DNA of 42,539 nt from IMG/VR virus record IMGVR_UViG_2897341779_000003. One strand, given 5' to 3'. Of the stretch, positions 4,064 through 30,956 are shown piece after piece. Each line of letters starts with the position of its first letter. Within the stretch, counting starts at the first letter, position 1. Source of the DNA: a virus. Taxonomy: Duplodnaviria > Heunggongvirae > Uroviricota > Caudoviricetes. The position numbers were made by a program, and so were the translations under genes. The notes under the pieces were generated by a model that was not told the DNA's origin, searched no databases, and saw only the letters and a list, made by a program, of their open reading frames with translations.

Positions 4064-4335
4064 GTATTCGTATTGAAATTGGCGAACGTTATGTCGTTAC
4101 CAGTGACAGCTTTCAGTTTATTCTCCACGAGAAAAAGAGAGCGGAAAGCGGTAAAAACGCCGGTCAGGAATGGCTGGCGGTGGTTGGTTATTACCCGAAA
4201 TTAAGCCAGCTCGTTTCCGGCCTGATGCATCACGATATTCTGACCGGAAGCGCAAAGTCTTTTGCTGATTTAAACGCGCAGGTTGAGCAACTCAGCAAGC
4301 GTTGTTCAGAGGCTTTTGGCTCATATGGCCGTTAA
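4060..4335 (+). CDS. early operon small protein (orf83 position), 91 aa
   Basis: ORF with RBS; overlaps the start of A. Confidence 0.5.
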   Translation: MSIRIEIGERYVVTSDSFQFILHEKKRAESGKNAGQEWLAVVGYYPKLSQLVSGLMHHDILTGSAKSFADLNAQVEQLSKRCSEAFGSYGR

Positions 4336-6616
4336 AGCCTCCGGGCGTTTTGTCCCTCCGTCAGCATTTACCGCAGGCACCGGTAAGACGTTTACCGGTG
4401 CTTATGCATGGAACGCGCCACGCGAGGCCGTCGGGCGCGAAAGACCCCTTACACGTGACGAGATGCGTCAGGTGCAAGGTGTTTTATCCACGATTAACCG
4501 CCTGCCTTACTTTTTGCGCTCGCTGTTTACTTCACGCTATGACTACATCCGGCGCAATAAAAGCCCGGTGCACGGGTTTTATTTCCTCACATCCACTTTT
4601 CAGCGTCGTTTATGGCCGCGCATTGAGCGTGTGAATCAGCGCCATGAAATGAACACCGACGCGTCGTTGCTGTTTCTGGCAGAGCGTGACCATTATGCGC
4701 GTCTGCCGGGGATGAATGATAAGGAGCTGAAAAAGTTTGCCGCCCGTATCTCATCGCAGCTTTTCATGATGTATGAGGAACTCTGCGATGCCTGGGTGGA
4801 TGCGCATGGCGAAAAAGAATCGCTGTTTACGGATGAGGCGCAGGCTCACCTCTATGGTCATGTTGCTGGCGCTGCACGTGCTTTCAATATTTCCCCGCTC
4901 TACTGGAAAAAATACCGTAAAGGACAGATGACCACGAGGCAGGCATATTCTGCCATTGCCCGCCTGTTTAACGATGAGTGGTGGATTAGTCAGCTTAAAG
5001 GCCAGCGTATGCGCTGGCATGAGGCGTTACTGATTGCTGTCGGGGAGGTCAATAAAGACCGTTCACCTTATGCCAGTAAACATGCCATTCGTGATGTGCG
5101 TGCACGCCGCCAGGCAAATCTGGAATTTCTTAAATCGTGTGACCTTGAAAACAGGGAAACCGGCGAACGCATCGACCTTATCAGTAAGGTGATGGGCAGT
5201 ATTTCTAATCCTGAAATTCGCCGGATGGAGCTGATGAACACCATTGCCGGTATTGAGCGTTACGCCGCCGCAGAGGGTGATGTGGGGATGTTTATCACGC
5301 TTACCGCGCCGTCAAAGTATCACCCGACACGTCAGGTCGGAAAAGGCGAAAGTAAAACCGTCCAGCTAAATCACGGCTGGAACGATGAGGCATTTAATCC
5401 AAAGGATGCGCAGCGTTATCTCTGCCATATCTGGAGCCTGATGCGCACGGCATTCAAGGATAATGATTTACAGGTCTACGGTTTGCGTGTCGTCGAGCCA
5501 CACCACGACGGAACGCCGCACTGGCATATGATGCTTTTTTGTAATCCACGCCAGCGTAACCAGATTATCGAAATCATGCGTCGCTATGCGCTCAAAGAGG
5601 ATGGCGACGAAAGAGGAGCCGCGCGAAACCGTTTTCAGGCAAAACATCTTAACCGGGGCGGTGCTGCGGGGTATATCGCAAAATACATCTCAAAAAACAT
5701 CGATGGCTATGCACTGGATGGTCAGCTCGATAATGATACCGGCAGGCCGCTGAAAGATACTGCTGCGGCTGTTACCGCATGGGCGTCAACGTGGCGAATT
5801 CCGCAATTTAAAACGGTTGGCCTGCCGACAATGGGGGCTTACCGTGAACTACGCAAATTGCCTCGCGGCGTCAGTATTGCTGATGAGTTTGACGAACGCG
5901 TCGAGGCTGCTCGCGCTGCCGCAGACAGTGGTGATTTTGCGTTGTATATCAGCGCGCAGGGTGGGGCAAATGTCCCGCGCGATTGTCAGACTGTCAGGGT
6001 TGCCCGTAGCCCGTCGGATGACGTTAACGAGTACGAGGAAGAAGTCGAGAGAGTGGTCGGCATTTACGCGCCGCATCTCGGCGCGCGTCATATTCATATC
6101 ACCAGAACGACGGACTGGCGCATTGTGCCGAAAGTTCCGGTCGTTGAGCCTTTGACTTTAAAAAGCGGCATCGCCGCGCCTCGGAGTCCTGTCAATAACT
6201 GTGGAAAGCTCACCGGTGGTGATACTTCGTTACCGGCTCCCACACCTTCTGAGCACGCCGCAGCAGTGCTTAATCTGGTTGATGACGGTGTTATTGAATG
6301 GAATGAACCGGAGGTCGTGAGGGCGCTCAGGGGCGCATTAAAATACGACCTGAGAACGCCAAACCGTCAGCAAAGAAACGGAAGCCCGTTAAAACCGCAT
6401 GAAATTGCACCATCTGCCAGACTGACCAGGTCTGAACGATTGCAAATCACCCGTATCCGCGTTGACCTTGCTCAGAACGGTATCATGCCGCAGCGATGGG
6501 AGCTTGAGGCGCTGGCGCGTGGAGCGACCGTAAATTATGACGGGAAAAAATTCACGTATCCGGTCGCTGATGGTTGGGGGGGATTCATAGGGCGCTTTGA
6601 TTTTTTCTGTGTTTGA
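4325..6616 (+). CDS. A: replication initiation protein A (rolling-circle nicking endonuclease), about 763 aa
   Basis: Large ORF at the A position; N-terminus MAVKASGRF from ATG 4325 (the ORF-track start 4283 is TTG); size matches P2 A (about 761 aa). Confidence 0.85.
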   Translation: MAVKASGRFVPPSAFTAGTGKTFTGAYAWNAPREAVGRERPLTRDEMRQVQGVLSTINRLPYFLRSLFTSRYDYIRRNKSPVHGFYFLTSTFQRRLWPRIERVNQRHEMNTDASLLFLAERDHYARLPGMNDKELKKFAARISSQLFMMYEELCDAWVDAHGEKESLFTDEAQAHLYGHVAGAARAFNISPLYWKKYRKGQMTTRQAYSAIARLFNDEWWISQLKGQRMRWHEALLIAVGEVNKDRSPYASKHAIRDVRARRQANLEFLKSCDLENRETGERIDLISKVMGSISNPEIRRMELMNTIAGIERYAAAEGDVGMFITLTAPSKYHPTRQVGKGESKTVQLNHGWNDEAFNPKDAQRYLCHIWSLMRTAFKDNDLQVYGLRVVEPHHDGTPHWHMMLFCNPRQRNQIIEIMRRYALKEDGDERGAARNRFQAKHLNRGGAAGYIAKYISKNIDGYALDGQLDNDTGRPLKDTAAAVTAWASTWRIPQFKTVGLPTMGAYRELRKLPRGVSIADEFDERVEAARAAADSGDFALYISAQGGANVPRDCQTVRVARSPSDDVNEYEEEVERVVGIYAPHLGARHIHITRTTDWRIVPKVPVVEPLTLKSGIAAPRSPVNNCGKLTGGDTSLPAPTPSEHAAAVLNLVDDGVIEWNEPEVVRALRGALKYDLRTPNRQQRNGSPLKPHEIAPSARLTRSERLQITRIRVDLAQNGIMPQRWELEALARGATVNYDGKKFTYPVADGWGGFIGRFDFFCV

Positions 6617-9705: not shown

Positions 9706-11643
9706 TTACTCACCGATCTCCTTCACGGTAATACGCACTTTGCCATCTTTTGCATCTTTTAATATTTGCCACAAAGATTGATATTCATTCTGTATGCTGT
9801 TTTTTTGTATTTCAGTAATTATACTAAAATCATTTTTCGTTACTCTACCTAGATAATAGTTTTTCTTAAATAGTTTGTCTTCTCTGCTTTTAGGAGATAG
9901 CTTAATAAGTTCATGAAAGAAATAAAGATTGTGAGTAAGGATTAATACCTTCTTTGTTAATTCATTTTTTATAATGTGGTGATGAATAATTGATGCGATG
10001 TCGTAGACATAGTTTTGCGATAGACTAGATATTGGATCGTCAATAACAATAAAAATATCCCTGCTATCGGTATCATTTTTATCGGTTTTACCTTTACAGC
10101 ACTCTAAAAAATAAAGAAACGTTATTAGTGTTTTTTCACCTTCGCTAAGAGATCTATAAACATTTTGGTTTTTTGTATGCCCTGGTCGAGATATAATGTA
10201 CATATCTTTTCTTTCTGCATGTTTTTCAATACAAAAACCAGAGATCCCTAGATTTTTTAAATGGGTGTTTATTGAGTCTATCGTAGAATCAATGTTAGAT
10301 ATTTTATCTCGCAATGCTTTTATTGTGAGATTATTTTCTTTTCCTTGTTGCTCAATATTATTTAATTCATCATGAACTTTCTTTTTGATATCAAAGAATT
10401 TTTCTTTGTGTTTGGATAAATTCTCTAAATCATCGCTGCAAAAAGCATGGAGAGCCCCCCAAACTTGTTTTCCGATTTTATTCTCATACTCTTTGAGTTT
10501 TTTAACCTTATCATTTATGTCTCTTATTTTCTTGTTAACAGCGCCTATGCTTTCCTGAACATGATTTTCTAGTTCTTTATCAATTTCTAATGTAACGCAT
10601 GTTGATGGATTGTTGATCTTATCAATAATGTTTATTAAATTTTTTTCTGCAATGTTTTGCAATATTTTAATATTGGAAATAATGTTCTCTTTATCTTTCT
10701 CATTGATTAGTGCACATGATGATATATTGTTTTGTATTTCGTTAAAATGATATATGGTATTTTTCTCATAAACTGACTTTATATCTGAGAGCTGTTTTAC
10801 TTTCTTTGAATAACTTTCGTCAAATATTGATTTAAGGGCATTTAAAAATTCGTGACTAATAGTTTTTTCCTGACAAAACGGACATGTAGAACCGTCTAAA
10901 TAATGTTCTTTACCTTTTTTTACCCAGTCAAGATTATGAAGTTTATTAATGGTTTCTGATAAATAGCTATTGCTTGTATCTATTATAGGTGTTGCTAATG
11001 TATTTACATCATCAATTGATGGGGTATATGGATGTAAAGGAGTTATTAATGCGGTTTCATTGTTTCTATTTTCTAATAGTATAGAGTATTCTTTTGCTAT
11101 ATCATTTAAATTAATAAAGGTGATTGGTGAGGATGATTTTATCATCTCAAAAAAAGGTCTTTTATAGCCAACTTTACCTTTCATTAAGGTTTTTAGTACA
11201 GAGTTTCTGATTGGTTCTGTTTTTTTCCAGATCGATTCGATGTATTCATTTTCTTTTTTTTCCATTTCTGCTTCTAATTTCAATAACACTCCTTTTTTTT
11301 GTCTATATTGCTCTGTGAGTTGCTGTTTAATTGCTTCTTTTTCAATTAATTGTTTTTCAATATCTGCATTTTCTTTACTTAATGTAAAAACACCTTTTTG
11401 TTCCTGTGCATTATAGAAGTTATCTTCAATAAATTTAGTGTTGTAAACAAGAGGTTTGTAATTGTCAAGAAGGGTACATTCACACTCGTTATAATCTGTG
11501 TGTGTAGAGTCGTAGAAATAATTTGAAATGGTAGATTTGCCACAACCATTTTGGCCGTATAGTATGTTTACTCTTTTTTCAAGATTCAGTATTGTGAAGG
11601 CGTCTTTCTTATAACTGGTAACATTTTTTAATCTAAGTTCCAT
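9706..11643 (-). pseudogene. 5' portion (about 639 native codons) of a Rad50/ABC-type ATPase with CxxC hook, RloC/PrrC-like candidate defence gene, truncated by the IS
   Basis: Walker A GQNGCGKST, coiled-coil-like stretches, CPFCQ, ABC-signature-like LSEGEK, Walker B IFIVIDDP, H-loop LILTHN; the last 6 codons and the stop derive from the IS end; about 30% GC. Confidence 0.6.
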
Positions 11644-26552: not shown

Positions 26553-27080
26553 ATGCAGCATTTAAAAAATATTACTGCGGGTAATCCAAAAACTGTTGCC
26601 CAATATCAACTGACAAAAAATTTTGATGTTATCTGGTTATGGTCCGAAGAGGGAAAAAACTGGTATGAGGAAGTAAGTAATTTTCAGGAAGACACGATAA
26701 AGATTGTTTACGATGAGAATAATATAATTGTCGGCATCACCAGAGATGCTTCAACGCTCAACCCTGAAGGTTTTAGCGTTGTCGAGGTTCCTGATATTAC
26801 CGCCAACCGACGTGCTGATGACTCAGGTAAATGGATGTTTAAGGATGGTGCCGTGATTAAGCGGATTTATACGGCAGACGAACAGCTGCAACTGGCGGAA
26901 TTACAGAAGTCAGCTTTGCTTTCCGAAGCTGAAACTATCATTCAGCCACTGGAACGCTCTGTCAGACTGAATATGGCAACAGATGAGGAGCGTAGCCGAC
27001 TGGAAGCATGGGAACGCTACAGTGTTCTGGTCAGCCGTGTGGATCCTGCAAATCCTGAATGGCCGGAAATGCCGCAATAA
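26553..27080 (+). CDS. G: tail fibre assembly chaperone (175 aa)
   Basis: 175 aa immediately after H, as in P2. Confidence 0.8.
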
Positions 27081-27135
27081 GTTGTATGATCTCTGGAGTG
27101 AGCTAACGTATCTATAGCACAGAGTAAAGCCTAAT

Positions 27136-27146
27136 CTGACAGTCTG
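27136..27146. repeat. inverted copy (CTGACAGTCTG) of the 11-bp repeat core CAGACTGTCAG, sitting in the loop of a 10-bp inverted repeat (27115-27124 / 27147-27156)
   Basis: Exact reverse complement of the cores at 27259-27269 and 29569-29579. Confidence 0.6.
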
Positions 27147-27258
27147 CTCTGTGCTAGGAGCGGACTGACCTGCTTCCCGATGATTAATACACAGCTATGC
27201 TAGTAATGTCCGTAGATCGCTGTGTGTTGCATCCATCGGTTGAACTCACAGTCCAAAC

Positions 27259-27302
27259 CAGACTGTCAGCTTTGATTAGATTCTACCTACTCAACCTGTC
27301 AG
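27259..27302. repeat. left copy of an about 45-bp imperfect direct repeat bracketing the G-FI cargo
   Basis: Framework CAGACTGTCAG-c/g-TTTGAT...TGTCAG, with the two TGTCAG elements 32 bp apart in both copies. Confidence 0.65.
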
Positions 27303-27501
27303 ATAAGGTCTGAGCTAATACATCTAATATATGGCTTCGTGCAGGGGACGGCTATCGCGAACGTTAGGCCAGGTATCTGAATACGCACAGTTCACTTGGT
27401 TGTACTTCTTGCACTGATCTGCTATCCCGCACAGCTATTTATAGGTAATCTTCAGTGTATAATCTGCCAACTTATGGAAGCTTGTACAACAGGAGAAATA
27501 T

Positions 27502-28344
27502 ATGAAAAAAGAATTGTTTGGACGTTGCCCGTTTGATCTTGACGAAGATGTAAAAAAAATAGCCGCGATAAATAAATATATCCATGCAAAATTTGAGGAG
27601 CATAAAAATAAAATAGACAACCTAAAGGGTGTGGAACAAAAATTGATGGTCTTACAGTACTTTAATGTACTGAATGAACTTAGTAATCAGGCTATCTCTT
27701 CTTTGAATATAGGAGCCTTTTCAGCATCGGAAGTATTAGCTAGGGTTATAATAGAACAGGCTGCCAATCAATTTTATATAGCAATAGATGATGGCGAAAA
27801 TGCACAAGCATTACTCAAGGCTAGTAAGAAATTAGTTCATAGTAATGGAAAACGGTGGCTGGAGTGTTTAAAATCCAAAGGAATGACTAATCCAGCAGCA
27901 AATGAAAGGATTCGCATGGGAAAAGAACTAACTGATCTATTTAATAGATTGTGGCCAAATACACCTGAATATCCAGGAACCAGAAGACTTTTTGAATTAA
28001 TTGGCTGGGAAACACACTATCATGCCCATTACGTTCCCCTTTGTGATTCAATACATACATTCTCTGATGATATGGTAAATATAGTATCTCTATATAATGC
28101 AATCCAAAGTGATGAAAATACTGCTATCGAATTCATTCTTGCAGTTAAACAAGAAAATAAACGGCTGGCAATTTATAATTTTGTAATTGCTACGGCCCTT
28201 CGGTGTGAGGCCTTAGTAAATGTATTTAACTCTTTAGGTTATCAGGATATTATAACAGAAATGACACCAACAATAGATACAGTCAACCAGACTATAATTC
28301 GATATGATGATTTTGATCATTCCAGAATTGATGATTGTCAATAA
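27502..28344 (+). CDS. hypothetical protein (280 aa), AT-rich cargo gene; candidate phage-defence or superinfection-exclusion effector
   Basis: RBS AGGAG 7 nt before the ATG; candidate -10 TATAAT at 27458-27463; no confidently recognised domain; C-terminal R-x5-H (RYDDFDH). Confidence 0.6.
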   Translation: MKKELFGRCPFDLDEDVKKIAAINKYIHAKFEEHKNKIDNLKGVEQKLMVLQYFNVLNELSNQAISSLNIGAFSASEVLARVIIEQAANQFYIAIDDGENAQALLKASKKLVHSNGKRWLECLKSKGMTNPAANERIRMGKELTDLFNRLWPNTPEYPGTRRLFELIGWETHYHAHYVPLCDSIHTFSDDMVNIVSLYNAIQSDENTAIEFILAVKQENKRLAIYNFVIATALRCEALVNVFNSLGYQDIITEMTPTIDTVNQTIIRYDDFDHSRIDDCQ

Positions 28345-28450
28345 TTAATTGACAGAATACGTACATGCGCAACAACTAGTGATAGTTGACTTATTTTCGC
28401 TCTTGAGAGACAACCATACTCAAATCTCCCACATTGCAGGAGATTTGAAT

Positions 28451-29035
28451 ATGAAAACGTCACCGTGGAATAAAGACCGTACCATCGGTCAAAAAAGGCC
28501 ACTTCAGATATTTCATATCTGGGGGATCCGGATTAGACTTGAGTTGGAAGGTAAAACACGCGATCTAGCTCTGTTCAACATGGCTTTGGACACTAAGCTA
28601 CGGGGCTGTGATTTGGTCAAACTCAAAGTATCAGATGCTGCATATGGCAGTTCTGTCTCAAGCAGAGCAACGGTGTTGCAACAGAAAACCGGCAGCCCTG
28701 TCCAATTTGAGATAACCAAAGGGACAAGGGAAGCGGTTACTGCATTGATAAAGCTCGGCAACTGGCATAGTAAAGGCTTCCTGTTCCGCTCTCGGGTCGG
28801 AACTAACCACCATATATCAACCCGGCAATACAACCGAATTTTTCATGGGTGGGTAGAAAAGCTTGGTCTCGAAGATTCGCTGTACAGCACACATTCCATG
28901 AGAAGAACAAAACCTTACTTAATCTACAAGAAAACCAAGAGTCTCCGGGTGATCCAACTTCTGTTGGGCCATAAGAAACTGGAAAGCACAGTCCGTTATT
29001 TGGGCATTGAAGTCGATATAGAAGGTCTCTTTTAA
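28451..29035 (+). CDS. small tyrosine recombinase, catalytic domain only (about 194 aa), FimB/FimE-like
   Basis: Catalytic residues present in order: Arg (LRGCDL), Lys (QQKTG), His-x-x-Arg (HSMRRT), His (LLGHKK), Tyr (VRYLG); RBS AGGAG before ATG 28451; no N-terminal DNA-binding domain. Confidence 0.7.
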   Translation: MKTSPWNKDRTIGQKRPLQIFHIWGIRIRLELEGKTRDLALFNMALDTKLRGCDLVKLKVSDAAYGSSVSSRATVLQQKTGSPVQFEITKGTREAVTALIKLGNWHSKGFLFRSRVGTNHHISTRQYNRIFHGWVEKLGLEDSLYSTHSMRRTKPYLIYKKTKSLRVIQLLLGHKKLESTVRYLGIEVDIEGLF

Positions 29036-29057
29036 GTTATGGGGGCTGATTTTATAT

Positions 29058-29447
29058 TCAATAGCGTATGCTCATCGAAGAAATAAACTCATAAAATGTA
29101 AAGACAGCCAGCAAAAACATACAGATAAAGATAAGGGAAATAGCACACTTAACTAAGGGCTGAACCCCCCGAGGTGTTCCCCATGGTTTAGACATTTGGG
29201 TTATAACCCAAATAAATAAGGCCACAAAACAGCAAACACCAGCCAATCCGAGCAGAGATATTATGACAACTCCAAACAGATTTCCAACATCTAGTTTATC
29301 TGTTTTTGCAACTAGGGTTAACAAACCAGCAATAATAGTTGCAATCGATATTCCCGCAATGGTTGTGAGATCGGCGATAACAGCCAGTTTTTCTTTAGTA
29401 TTTCCTTGAGTAAAGACCTCTAAAATTGATTTCATGGAAATAACCAC
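29058..29447 (-). CDS. small integral membrane protein (129 aa, 3-4 predicted transmembrane helices)
   Basis: Strongly hydrophobic segments throughout; AT-rich; opposite strand to the surrounding late genes. Confidence 0.55.
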   Translation of the reverse strand: MVISMKSILEVFTQGNTKEKLAVIADLTTIAGISIATIIAGLLTLVAKTDKLDVGNLFGVVIISLLGLAGVCCFVALFIWVITQMSKPWGTPRGVQPLVKCAISLIFICMFLLAVFTFYEFISSMSIRY

Positions 29448-29568
29448 CTACTATCGATTATATTCAGGAGCTTTTTATCATAACGATATCAGATAGATAA
29501 GGACATTGTAATATTTTGGATGATTTAAACTTGCTTTTGTAACTCTAATGTCCACTTTTCGCTCAAAG

Positions 29569-29612
29569 CAGACTGTCAGGTTTGATAGCATTTGGGCTAT
29601 GTAAATTGTCAG
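29569..29612. repeat. right copy of the about 45-bp imperfect direct repeat bracketing the G-FI cargo
   Basis: CAGACTGTCAGGTTTGATAG...TTGTCAGG; same internal spacing as the left copy. Confidence 0.65.
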
Positions 29613-29642
29613 GCGGAAAATGAGTGAGTACAAATCAGGACA

Positions 29643-29669
29643 GGCGGGCGAATTGCCCGCCTTTTCTTT
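29643..29669 (+). terminator. rho-independent terminator separating the cargo from the FI late operon
   Basis: Hairpin GGCGGGC-GAATT-GCCCGCC followed by TTTTCTTT. Confidence 0.7.
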
Positions 29670-29765
29670 ATCTGTTGTTTCATCCACTGACCAGCCAGGT
29701 CAAATAGCGTCTTATGCTCTGCACAACAGAAAATAGTTGTACCCATTAACCACGGAGTTAAACGG

Positions 29766-30956
29766 ATGAGTGACTATCATCATGGCGTGCAGGTGCTGGA
29801 GATTAACGACGGCACCCGCGTCATTTCCACCGTATCCACTGCCATTGTCGGCATGGTCTGCACGGCCAGCGATGCGGATGCGGAAACCTTCCCCCTCAAT
29901 AAACCGGTGCTGATTACCAATGTGCAAAGCGCAATTGCAAAGGCCGGTAAAAAAGGCACGCTGGCGGCATCGTTGCAGGCCATCGCTGACCAGTCAAAAC
30001 CGGTCACCGTTGTCGTGCGCGTGGAAGACTGCACCGGTGATGACGAGGAAACGAAACTCGCGCAGACCGTTTCCAATATCATCGGCACCACCGACGAAAA
30101 CGGTCAGTACACCGGACTAAAAGCCCTGCTGGCGGCGGAGTCGGTAACCGGTGTTAAACCGCGTATTCTCGGTGTGCCGGGACTGGATACCAAAGAGGTG
30201 GCTGTTGCACTGGCATCCGTCTGTCAGAAGCTGCGCGCTTTCGGATATATCAGCGCATGGGGCTGTAAGACCATTTCCGAGGTGAAAGCCTACCGCCAGA
30301 ATTTCAGCCAGCGTGAGCTGATGGTCATCTGGCCGGATTTCCTCGCATGGGATACGGTCACCAGTACCACCGCTACCGCGTATGCCACCGCCCGTGCGCT
30401 GGGTCTGCGCGCTAAAATCGACCAGGAGCAGGGCTGGCATAAAACGCTGTCCAACGTCGGGGTAAACGGTGTTACCGGCATCAGCGCATCTGTATTCTGG
30501 GATTTGCAGGAGTCCGGCACCGATGCTGACCTGCTTAACGAGTCAGGCGTCACTACGCTGATTCGCCGCGACGGTTTCCGATTCTGGGGTAACCGTACCT
30601 GCTCTGATGACCCGCTGTTCCTCTTTGAAAACTACACCCGCACCGCGCAGGTACTGGCTGACACGATGGCTGAGGCGCACATGTGGGCGGTGGACAAGCC
30701 CATCACCGCAACGCTGATTCGCGACATCGTTGACGGCATCAATGCCAAATTCCGTGAGCTGAAAACAAACGGCTATATCGTGGATGCGACCTGCTGGTTC
30801 AGCGAAGAATCCAACGATGCGGAAACCCTCAAGGCCGGAAAACTGTATATCGACTACGACTATACACCGGTGCCTCCTCTTGAAAACCTGACCCTGCGCC
30901 AGCGTATTACCGATAAATACCTGGCAAATCTGGTCACCTCGGTTAACAGCAATTAA
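29766..30956 (+). CDS. FI: tail sheath protein (396 aa)
   Basis: 396 aa as in P2 gpFI. Confidence 0.9.
   Translation: MSDYHHGVQVLEINDGTRVISTVSTAIVGMVCTASDADAETFPLNKPVLITNVQSAIAKAGKKGTLAASLQAIADQSKPVTVVVRVEDCTGDDEETKLAQTVSNIIGTTDENGQYTGLKALLAAESVTGVKPRILGVPGLDTKEVAVALASVCQKLRAFGYISAWGCKTISEVKAYRQNFSQRELMVIWPDFLAWDTVTSTTATAYATARALGLRAKIDQEQGWHKTLSNVGVNGVTGISASVFWDLQESGTDADLLNESGVTTLIRRDGFRFWGNRTCSDDPLFLFENYTRTAQVLADTMAEAHMWAVDKPITATLIRDIVDGINAKFRELKTNGYIVDATCWFSEESNDAETLKAGKLYIDYDYTPVPPLENLTLRQRITDKYLANLVTSVNSN

Follow-up and report, generated by a model that had tools for sequence, protein, structure and literature searches.

Inverted repeats in the G–FI (Z/fun) cargo slot of a P2-like Escherichia coli prophage: probable half-sites of a cassette system rather than an invertible switch

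Introduction

A short inverted repeat that lies upstream of an accessory gene and near a gene for a small tyrosine recombinase raises the question of whether the enclosed DNA is inverted as a regulatory switch, or whether the repeats are there for another reason. Such an arrangement is found at positions 27115-27279 of IMG/VR record IMGVR_UViG_2897341779_000003, a stretch of 42,539 nucleotides that is referred to below as the window. This stretch is an E. coli prophage of the P2-like (Peduovirus) type, and the region in question falls in the slot between genes G and FI, which holds Z/fun in P2. An initial annotation had read the 112 bp between two inverted copies of an 11-mer as a promoter or regulatory segment inverted by the recombinase. 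The comparisons reported here point elsewhere. The region forms the left border of the G–FI slot, and its repeats are probably half-sites of a site-specific cassette system with a recombinase of about 200 aa, not a switch. The inverted pair of 11-mers is a by-product of the conserved border elements of the slot and of a scarred copy brought in by the cargo.

P2-like prophages are textbook hotspots at which anti-phage and accessory genes are swapped. As summarized in PMC8987985, Z/fun lies between inverted repeats, which are also present in bacterial genomes, and site-specific recombination was proposed for it in 2004 (Nilsson, Karlsson & Haggård-Ljungquist, Mol Biol Evol 21:1). The kind of feature is already known in that sense, site-specific exchange at Z/fun having been proposed in outline at that time. 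PMC9122126, a study of the other (old/tin) slot, does not draw on this idea; the 'TO region' is the tin/old locus between A and Q, not G–FI. A large survey of P2 hotspots from 2026 (PMC13586616) does not draw on it either and leaves open the mechanism of exchange with unrelated mobile elements. Literature searches gave no described cassette system of the kind considered here.

Boundary elements of the slot

The 3.6 kb round the region are 100% identical to prophages of S88, APEC O1/O2 and related strains, and the flanks match the P2 genes G (tail fibre assembly, 26553-27080) and FI (sheath, from 29766). In an alignment with P2 and with strain A30, which carry different cargo, homology extends from G to 27164/27165 and resumes at 29551 in P2 and at 29017 in A30. 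A total of 120 IMG/VR loci with the left element were fetched (numbers prefixed L denote individual loci). Together with reference loci and the window they gave 96 complete G–FI intervals, which comprise 86 unique sequences and 42 unrelated cargo classes of 1.0-6.1 kb.

Copies 1 and 3 of the 11-mer, at 27136 and 29569, sit in imperfect inverted repeats of about 36 bp that are P2 backbone; the initial annotation was right to place them in elements bounding the cargo. Left and right elements occupy constant backbone positions in nearly all G–FI intervals of the 42 cargo classes, and the distance of the right element from FI is constant in almost every P2-like locus examined. The conservation profile stops at 27165/27166 on the left (...AGCGGAC(n)TT) and at 29549/29550 on the right, where the element starts AA(n)GTCCGCT; the right border motif AA(n)/GTCC.C is present at this position across the 42 classes. 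The consensus of these classes is AATCTGACAGTCCGCTCTGTGCCAGnAGCGGACnTT for the left element and AATCTGACAGTCTGCTTTGAGCGAGAAGCGGACnTT for the reverse complement of the right one, with about 31 of 36 positions matching, and in the window itself the two elements show 79% complementarity over 33 nt. Each element contains a stem-loop, termed here a half-site (Table 1). The motif of the left one (27142-27165) is also found 3′ of the stop codon in homologues of the recombinase, and GTGCTAGGAGCGGAC is the sole match in the window to GTGCCANNAGCGGAC, with 1 mismatch. The 11-mer is made up of the final five bases of a half-site stem (CAGAC) and the six that follow (TGTCAG); it straddles an internal boundary of the element, about 20 nt from the start of the cargo.

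The boundary elements might instead be cis-elements of the phage only, such as hairpins at mRNA ends or insulators, with cargo turned over by homologous or short-homology recombination and no dedicated recombinase. They are indeed backbone, at fixed positions beside G and before the terminator and promoter of the F operon. The left hairpin (27115-27156), which is also present in P2 itself and in strain A30, occurs as two fully paired haplotypes, TGGCACAGAG/CTCTGTGCCA in 51 loci and TAGCACAGAG/CTCTGTGCTA in 7, and thus provides one compensatory pair. The 2026 survey discusses only homologous and illegitimate recombination and transposons as possible means of exchange (PMC13586616). A role specific to the phage leaves unexplained, however, that, in non-phage DNA of many genera, the recombinase gene lies between half-sites and cassettes are set apart by them, and that cassettes common to P2 slots and to bacterial arrays have their borders at half-sites, as described below. 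The elements are unlikely to be cis-elements alone.

One interval (L079; IMG/VR 2541047968_000016) carries the left backbone element twice in tandem, at positions 79 and 1287 of the G–FI interval and 1.2 kb apart, and the duplicates include about 50 nt downstream of G. This suggests a duplication, or two P2-like phages recombining inside the slot.

Small tyrosine recombinase

The initial annotation had noted a small FimB/FimE-like recombinase encoded about 1.2 kb downstream. An open reading frame of 194 codons and of FimB/FimE size is indeed present at this place; the family assignment did not hold, with 22.9 bits against a cut-off of 222 for the NCBIfam model of tyrosine-type DNA invertases (NF007371). 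Integron-integrase models gave 18.2-18.3 bits (cut-offs 265 and 435), every NCBIfam match was far below its cut-off, and comparison with solved structures returned weak matches to XerD only. The protein belongs to a family of more than 7,900 homologues of about 200 aa, with 62-96% identity, distributed from Enterobacterales to Pseudomonas and Betaproteobacteria.

Nucleotide homology between the window and the homologue loci is confined to 28396-29017. Intact homologues carry GTCCGCTCCTCGCTCA upstream and a hairpin with CTGTGCCAGGAGCGGAC downstream. These flanking half-sites (GTCCGCT..TCGCTCA / GTGCCA..AGCGGAC) form the inner ends of the right and left elements of P2. A strict downstream motif of the GCCAnnAGCnGnC type lies at most 100 nt from the stop codon in 20 of 78 loci, distant genera included, vs 0.45% of background windows. 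To this extent the expectation was borne out that the repeats are related to recombination and belong with the family of the neighbouring recombinase. The 11-mer itself is absent from the homologue loci checked (L005-L015), and so is CTGTCAG; the sites conserved beside the homologues differ from it in sequence.

The gene of the window is not intact. The last 12 codons conserved in the family (DDALEISESIEV) are swapped for six others, and the downstream site is missing. The three other kinds of phage-borne version seen are damaged as well: those of IHE3034 and L111 end at 28555, that of L092 retains about 8 codons, and the lambdoid copies have a frameshift, a stop and a 73-bp deletion.

In Pseudomonas/Stutzerimonas loci L168, L175, L184 and L191 (about positions 9900-10700) the homologue is bracketed by another inverted repeat, TTGGCCGGTTAGCGAC ... 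GTCGCTAACCGGCCAA, and the difference suggests that sites co-evolve with the enzyme. L010-L015, which are contigs from Providencia and from gut metagenomes, have a 3′-type half-site, CTGTGCCAGAAGCAGAC, at positions 100-125. It stands about 70 nt past the end of an integrase gene (P4-type, arm-binding), where a genomic island starts that encodes the small recombinase 6 kb further on.

Half-site arrays and shared cassettes

The recombinase neighbourhoods of Enterobacterales contain arrays of imperfect palindromes of about 66 bp, of the form AAC/GTCCGCTnnTCGCTCAnAGCGGAC–loop–GTCCGCTnnGTGCCAGnAGCGGAC/GTT. Each half is a 24-nt stem-loop. The palindromes have a single polarity, stand between modules of 0.6-5 kb, and form much stabler folds than shuffled sequences (z about -3.6 to -3.8); in sequence they are unrelated to attC, with ends AAC..GTT. 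The recombinase gene sits within one such palindrome. In P2 the phage backbone occupies the place of the recombinase, which gives the order 3′ half, cargo, 5′ half. Modules of the arrays encode DJ-1/PfpI, GNAT and NUDIX proteins, an MFS transporter with DeoR, and LysR with a monooxygenase, and they occur in both orientations. In non-phage chromosomes and plasmids of many genera, too, half-sites separate cassettes.

Several cassettes are shared, with identical borders, between P2 slots and these arrays. An AbiGi cassette is found in a P2 slot (L061) and beside the recombinase in L005, with its border at a half-site. Another is common to L132 and L156, again with borders at half-sites, and a third, common to L057 and L145, has opposite orientations in the two and lies about 75 bp from a half-site in both. 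Internal half-sites are present in 9 of the 42 P2 cargo classes, which indicates two or more cassettes in these.

It might be held that the palindromes are deletion derivatives, in the manner of miniature inverted-repeat transposable elements, of a 0.7-kb 'repeat–recombinase–repeat' element that inserts between genes, the 'cassettes' being merely intervening DNA. The recombinase is in fact bracketed by inverted repeats like an insertion sequence (IS), and the 66-bp palindromes resemble its joined ends. Insertion of such an element cannot yield the reversed order seen in P2, however, and between related phages it is the DNA inside the half-sites that varies while the half-sites stay; no target-site duplications were noted. 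This explanation is very improbable.

Repeats of the region and origin of the second copy

The 11-mer CTGACAGTCTG occupies 27136-27146; separated from it by 112 bp, its exact reverse complement occupies 27259-27269, and a third, direct copy is at 29569-29579. The pair and the third copy are exact, as first described, and not random: the whole window contains four copies of the 11-mer vs 0.01 expected from shuffles. An exact inverted repeat of at least 11 nt was seen in 2 of 2000 shuffles of the 165 nt of 27115-27279. The fourth exact copy, CAGACTGTCAG at 5987-5997 (context TTGTCAGACTGTCAGGG), is within an open reading frame of 777 aa (4283-6616) and, compared with the hotspot elements, has no flank similarity outside the 11-mer.

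Two palindromes with identical 22-nt spacers had also been described. The first stands as reported, with exact 10-bp arms (TAGCACAGAG at 27115-27124, CTCTGTGCTA at 27147-27156) and a 22-nt spacer. The second was off by one base: its exact 7-bp arms are at 27189-27195 and 27219-27225, and the spacer is 23 nt. Inverted repeats of its class (at least 7 nt) are contained in about 43% of shuffles, and its fold is unremarkable (z = -1.6, equalled by 13 of 200 shuffles). It is disrupted in a lambdoid prophage copy (ACACCGC..GCTGTGT), and its right arm overlaps an IS remnant (see below). The second palindrome is near chance level.

Copy 2 of the 11-mer (27259-27269) came with the cargo. The segment 27165-29017, with the leader, the DUF5677 gene and the recombinase gene, is found again, with 89% identity, in a lambdoid prophage (CFSAN004176) and in a circle of 8.4 kb. 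The lambdoid copy contains copy 2 and has no inverted partner upstream. Since copy 1 is missing there, the inverted pair arose by juxtaposition. The sequence round copy 2, designated S2 (27252-27330), forms a direct repeat with 29564-29612 (49 nt, 71% identity). The outer part of the element, GTCCGCT..TCG, to which cargo junctions map, is missing from S2, and an IS30-family remnant stands in its place.

The remnant (27223-27251) matches the right end of ISCfr4 to its terminus (...AACTCACAG), with about 29 bp left. BLAST matches of this segment fall at the 3′ end of genes annotated as ISCfr4 transposase and at IS ends in numerous plasmids; the list of open reading frames contains no transposase within 27081-27501, and the second IS end is not present. 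In plasmids this IS end abuts ...CACAAAGCAGAC or ...CTCAAAGCAGACTGTCAGATTTGAT, from which it follows that the IS inserts into the loop of a half-site. Sequence related to S2 adjoins an IS30-family end in pKP187. Copy 2 is therefore the leftover of a right element of the P2 type that was hit by an IS and later suffered a deletion. One left-type element and one relic of a right-type element side by side account for the inverted 11-mers around 112 bp.

Copies of ISCfr4 were also found within the loop of 24-nt half-site stem-loops, as TTCCGCTTTTGG-IS-CACAAAGCAGAC (L219:1300-2560; L218:4990-5060), and the IS seems to target these palindromes. Short pieces of 27166-27330 match hundreds of plasmids, of Klebsiella and others. 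The circular record of 8,461 bp (L216; NZ_CP148379.1) contains lambdoid replication genes (O/P-like, Cro/CI), the unit of DUF5677 and pseudo-recombinase, an AAA ATPase and HNH pair, hokD and rem, and is colinear with the chromosomal prophage segment of CFSAN004176. This 'plasmid' record may be an excised or misassembled prophage fragment.

Orientation of the segment

In the reading of the initial annotation, the 112 bp between the inverted 11-mers are a regulatory element that is flipped by the downstream recombinase and turns the cargo gene on or off. An exact inverted repeat of 11 bp is far beyond chance, a small tyrosine recombinase is encoded 1.2 kb away, and inverted half-sites of the family are probably able to invert DNA, one cassette being found in both orientations in distant genomes. 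The surveys of assembled sequences speak against a switch at this place, however. A synthetic inverted allele had 0 matches of at least 99% in 5,426 E. coli genomes, vs 37 genomes with the native form, and 34 of 34 full-length E. coli matches were colinear and in a single piece. Exact 35-mers of the predicted inverted junctions (GTAAAGCCTAATCTGACAGTCTGGTTTGGACTGTG and CCTAGCACAGAGCAGACTGTCAGCTTTGATTAGAT) were absent from the metagenome collection and from IMG/VR, where the native junctions were present in 5 metagenome and 7 IMG/VR contigs. The search for both orientations of 27147-27258 thus gave 0 inverted cases in assemblies vs 37 native genomes and 12 native-junction contigs; assemblies record the majority orientation only and leave room for a rare inversion.

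Other properties of the segment agree with this outcome. A consensus scan, which has limited sensitivity, detected no sigma-70-like site within 27147-27258, and a good -10 is found only outside, at 27458-27463. The partner repeat is missing beside the lambdoid copy of the cargo unit, the recombinase is outside the invertase family, truncated here and a pseudogene elsewhere, the 11-mer was absent from all recombinase homologue loci checked, and the portion of the element to which junctions map is missing from copy 2. Among the hallmarks of a FimB/FimE switch, the bracket of inverted repeats is present; both orientations, an internal promoter, a recombinase of the invertase family and a conserved repeat pair are not. 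A switch at this site is extremely improbable. This locus is a frozen scar, for which a phase-variable annotation is to be avoided.

The third copy of the 11-mer had been taken to allow inversion or deletion of the whole cargo. Neither was encountered: among the 86 unique P2 slots 0 classes occur in both orientations, the junction predicted for whole-cargo inversion is absent from IMG/VR, and so is the junction predicted for a deletion between copies 2 and 3 (CACAGTCCAAACCAGACTGTCAGGTTTGATAGCAT).

Proposed mechanism

The elements would be half-sites, 24-nt stem-loops of the form GTCCGCT-N10-AGCGGAC, of a site-specific gene-cassette system served by the family of tyrosine recombinases of about 200 aa to which the neighbouring gene belongs. 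If two like half-sites in direct orientation recombined, circles of 'cassette + element' would be excised or integrated, and units would in this way move from one chromosomal array, plasmid or prophage to another; between unlike, inverted half-sites the outcome would be an inverted cassette. For the window, the recipient would have been a prophage of the A30 type, in which the left element is followed by 326 bp, then a small-protein gene, and then the right element. A unit of the DUF5677 cassette with a 5′ half, the recombinase gene and a 3′ half would have entered at 27165/27166, the border of the left half-site, beside the A30-type cassette already in place. The C-terminus of the recombinase, the downstream 3′ half-site and the first 326 bp or so of the resident cassette would later have been lost in a deletion of about 400 bp, which left the junction at 29017 and froze the arrangement. 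Homology to the recombinase homologue loci ends, and A30 homology begins, at one and the same base, 29017. Insertion followed by deletion would explain both the left border at 27165/27166 and this shared breakpoint.

Several points weigh against the proposed half-site system. All of the evidence is comparative and no recombination was observed, and the crossover point is placed only by the ends of homology. Short conserved flanks could also support homology-driven exchange. The ancestral intermediate of 'insertion then deletion' was not found in any database. The left hairpin may serve the phage apart from recombination, for example in protection of the mRNA 3′ end; it lacks a T-run, and no terminator was called there by the terminator scan. 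Between the two ends of each cargo no convincing base-for-base covariation was seen, and the data leave their interaction undecided.

A wider proposition is put forward more tentatively, as one that is possible but falls somewhat short of probable. The Z/fun borders might be working sites of an essentially uncharacterised, integron-like cassette system of Gamma- and Betaproteobacteria, with 24-nt half-sites paired into palindromes of about 66 bp and a recombinase in its own split site, that shuttles cassettes of one or two genes among arrays, plasmids and lambdoid and P2-like prophages. If true, this would be a mechanism for the turnover of cargo and defence genes in phage hotspots. The interest of the locus lies in this tie of hotspot borders to a small-recombinase cassette system, not in phase variation: the repeats mark the precise borders of the cargo, and the half-sites concerned are also found on either side of a very widespread small recombinase and between the cassettes of bacterial arrays. 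The link revives the 2004 proposal in a directly testable form, with defined sites, an enzyme family and predicted circles of 'cassette + element'.

Genes and other features of the slot

The coordinates of the features are summarized in Table 1. The slot has a G+C content of 0.40 vs 0.50 in the backbone and contains three genes: DUF5677 (27502-28344), the tyrosine recombinase, and a small-protein gene on the minus strand (29058-29447). The product of the last has 125-129 aa, belongs to phrog_4155 (unknown function) and has a membrane-associated, hydrophobic look by sequence. None of the three cargo proteins had a match in PADLOC. The candidate -10 of the DUF5677 gene was not called in the consensus promoter scan, with a poor -35. 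In the annotation of P2, an activator site and a transcription start are located downstream of the hairpin at 29642-29662. Rfam gave no match with E <= 1 in 26900-29900, and none at gathering thresholds in four array loci; the hairpins are therefore not explained by known RNA families.

The palindrome over the start of the recombinase gene (28415-28453) is kept in distant homologues (L005:2167-2205, L010:5966-6003) with changes on both arms, for example ACTCAAATCTCC/GGAGATTTGAGT vs AATTAAATCTCT/AGGAGATTTAATT. The idea was considered that it is a core site like lox, paired with another copy that precedes the cargo, and no second copy exists. Occlusion of translation in read-through transcripts, or a role as a protein-binding site, is likelier for this reason, and either may apply.

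Two insertions were seen in otherwise identical copies of the cargo region. L002 (strain 98208) carries the IS21-family element ISEc12 at the equivalent of 27308-27314, where the flanks overlap by 7 bp, and H1 (GPEC128-620) carries an IS3-family element that was inserted independently elsewhere in the slot.

Table 1. Features of the G–FI slot and its borders (positions in the window; a dot in the strand column means that no strand was assigned)
Feature	Position	Strand	Basis or remarks
P2 gene G homologue, tail fibre assembly, left backbone gene of slot	26553-27080	+	Open reading frame; RefSeq annotation of identical DNA; alignment to P2 G
First (backbone) hairpin	27115-27156	+	10-bp arms; 22-nt loop containing the inverted 11-mer 27136-27146
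Left boundary repeat S1	27133-27168	.	Imperfect inverted repeat of 29547-29582
'3′ half-site' stem-loop GTCTGCT-CTGTGCTAGG-AGCGGAC	27142-27165	+	Predicted minimum-free-energy stem
Imported cassette: leader 27166-27501 and DUF5677 gene 27502-28344	27166-28395	+	Pfam DUF5677; G+C 0.34-0.40 vs 0.50 in backbone
Second palindrome	27189-27225	.	7-bp arms, 23-nt spacer; near chance
IS30-family (ISCfr4-like) right terminal repeat remnant	27223-27251	+	BLAST; comparison with L218 and L219
S2, degraded and diverged right-type element	27252-27330	+	11-mer 27259-27269; second CTGTCAG box 27296-27302; lacks first stem-loop half
TATAAT, candidate -10 of a putative DUF5677 promoter	27458-27463	+	Read from sequence; kept in lambdoid copy
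Degenerate '5′ half-site' TTTTCGCTCTTGAGAGAC	28384-28401	+	Counterpart of GTCCGCTCCTCGCTCATAAGAGAC upstream of intact homologues
15-bp-arm palindrome over Shine-Dalgarno and ATG of recombinase	28415-28453	+	Fold z = -4.95
Small tyrosine recombinase, 194 aa, catalytic domain only	28451-29035	+	PF00589
Right part of resident A30-type cassette	29017-29549	.	A30 homology from 29017; open reading frame 29058-29447 (minus)
Right boundary element S4	29547-29612	+	'5′ half-site' GTCCACT-TTTCGCTCAA-AGCAGAC 29550-29573; 11-mer 29569-29579; second TTGTCAG box 29606-29612
Intrinsic terminator-like hairpin, backbone, before F-operon promoter region and FI (start 29766)	29642-29662	+	Terminator scan; P2 annotation

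Comparison with known systems

With fimS and FimB/FimE the region has in common a short segment between inverted repeats and a recombinase of about 200 aa encoded nearby. It differs in that the segment of the window has no promoter and was found in one orientation, the recombinase is not an invertase, and the repeat pair is not conserved with the module.

The arrays resemble integrons in their short cassettes, imperfect palindromes of about 60-70 bp, tyrosine recombinase, outer ends AAC...GTT and accessory cargo (GNAT, NUDIX, DJ-1, LysR-regulated enzymes). Unlike the integron integrases, the recombinase here consists of the catalytic domain only (about 200 aa; 18 bits vs cut-offs of 265-435), and it is encoded inside a split palindrome, not beside attI. 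The cassettes occur in both orientations with their own regulators (LysR/DeoR), whereas those of integrons are mostly promoterless, co-oriented and read from a common promoter.

The pdif modules of Acinetobacter plasmids (XerC/XerD) and the R64 shufflon (Rci/sfx) consist of modules bounded by inverted, partly conserved recombination sites. Discrete modules, each between inverted copies of a partly conserved site, are seen here too. The sites differ in sequence, none has the 11-6-11 form of the XerC/D type, and the recombinase is neither XerC/D nor Rci; a polymorphism of orientation was seen here only once, between distant genomes.

A further likeness is to the Z/fun locus of P2-like phages itself. 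The window shares with it the position from G to FI, variable cargo of low G+C content between conserved inverted border repeats, and the occurrence of these repeats and of cargo in bacterial and other non-P2 DNA. The cargo of P2 is fun; that of the window is the DUF5677 gene with a truncated recombinase gene and the resident gene for a small hydrophobic protein.

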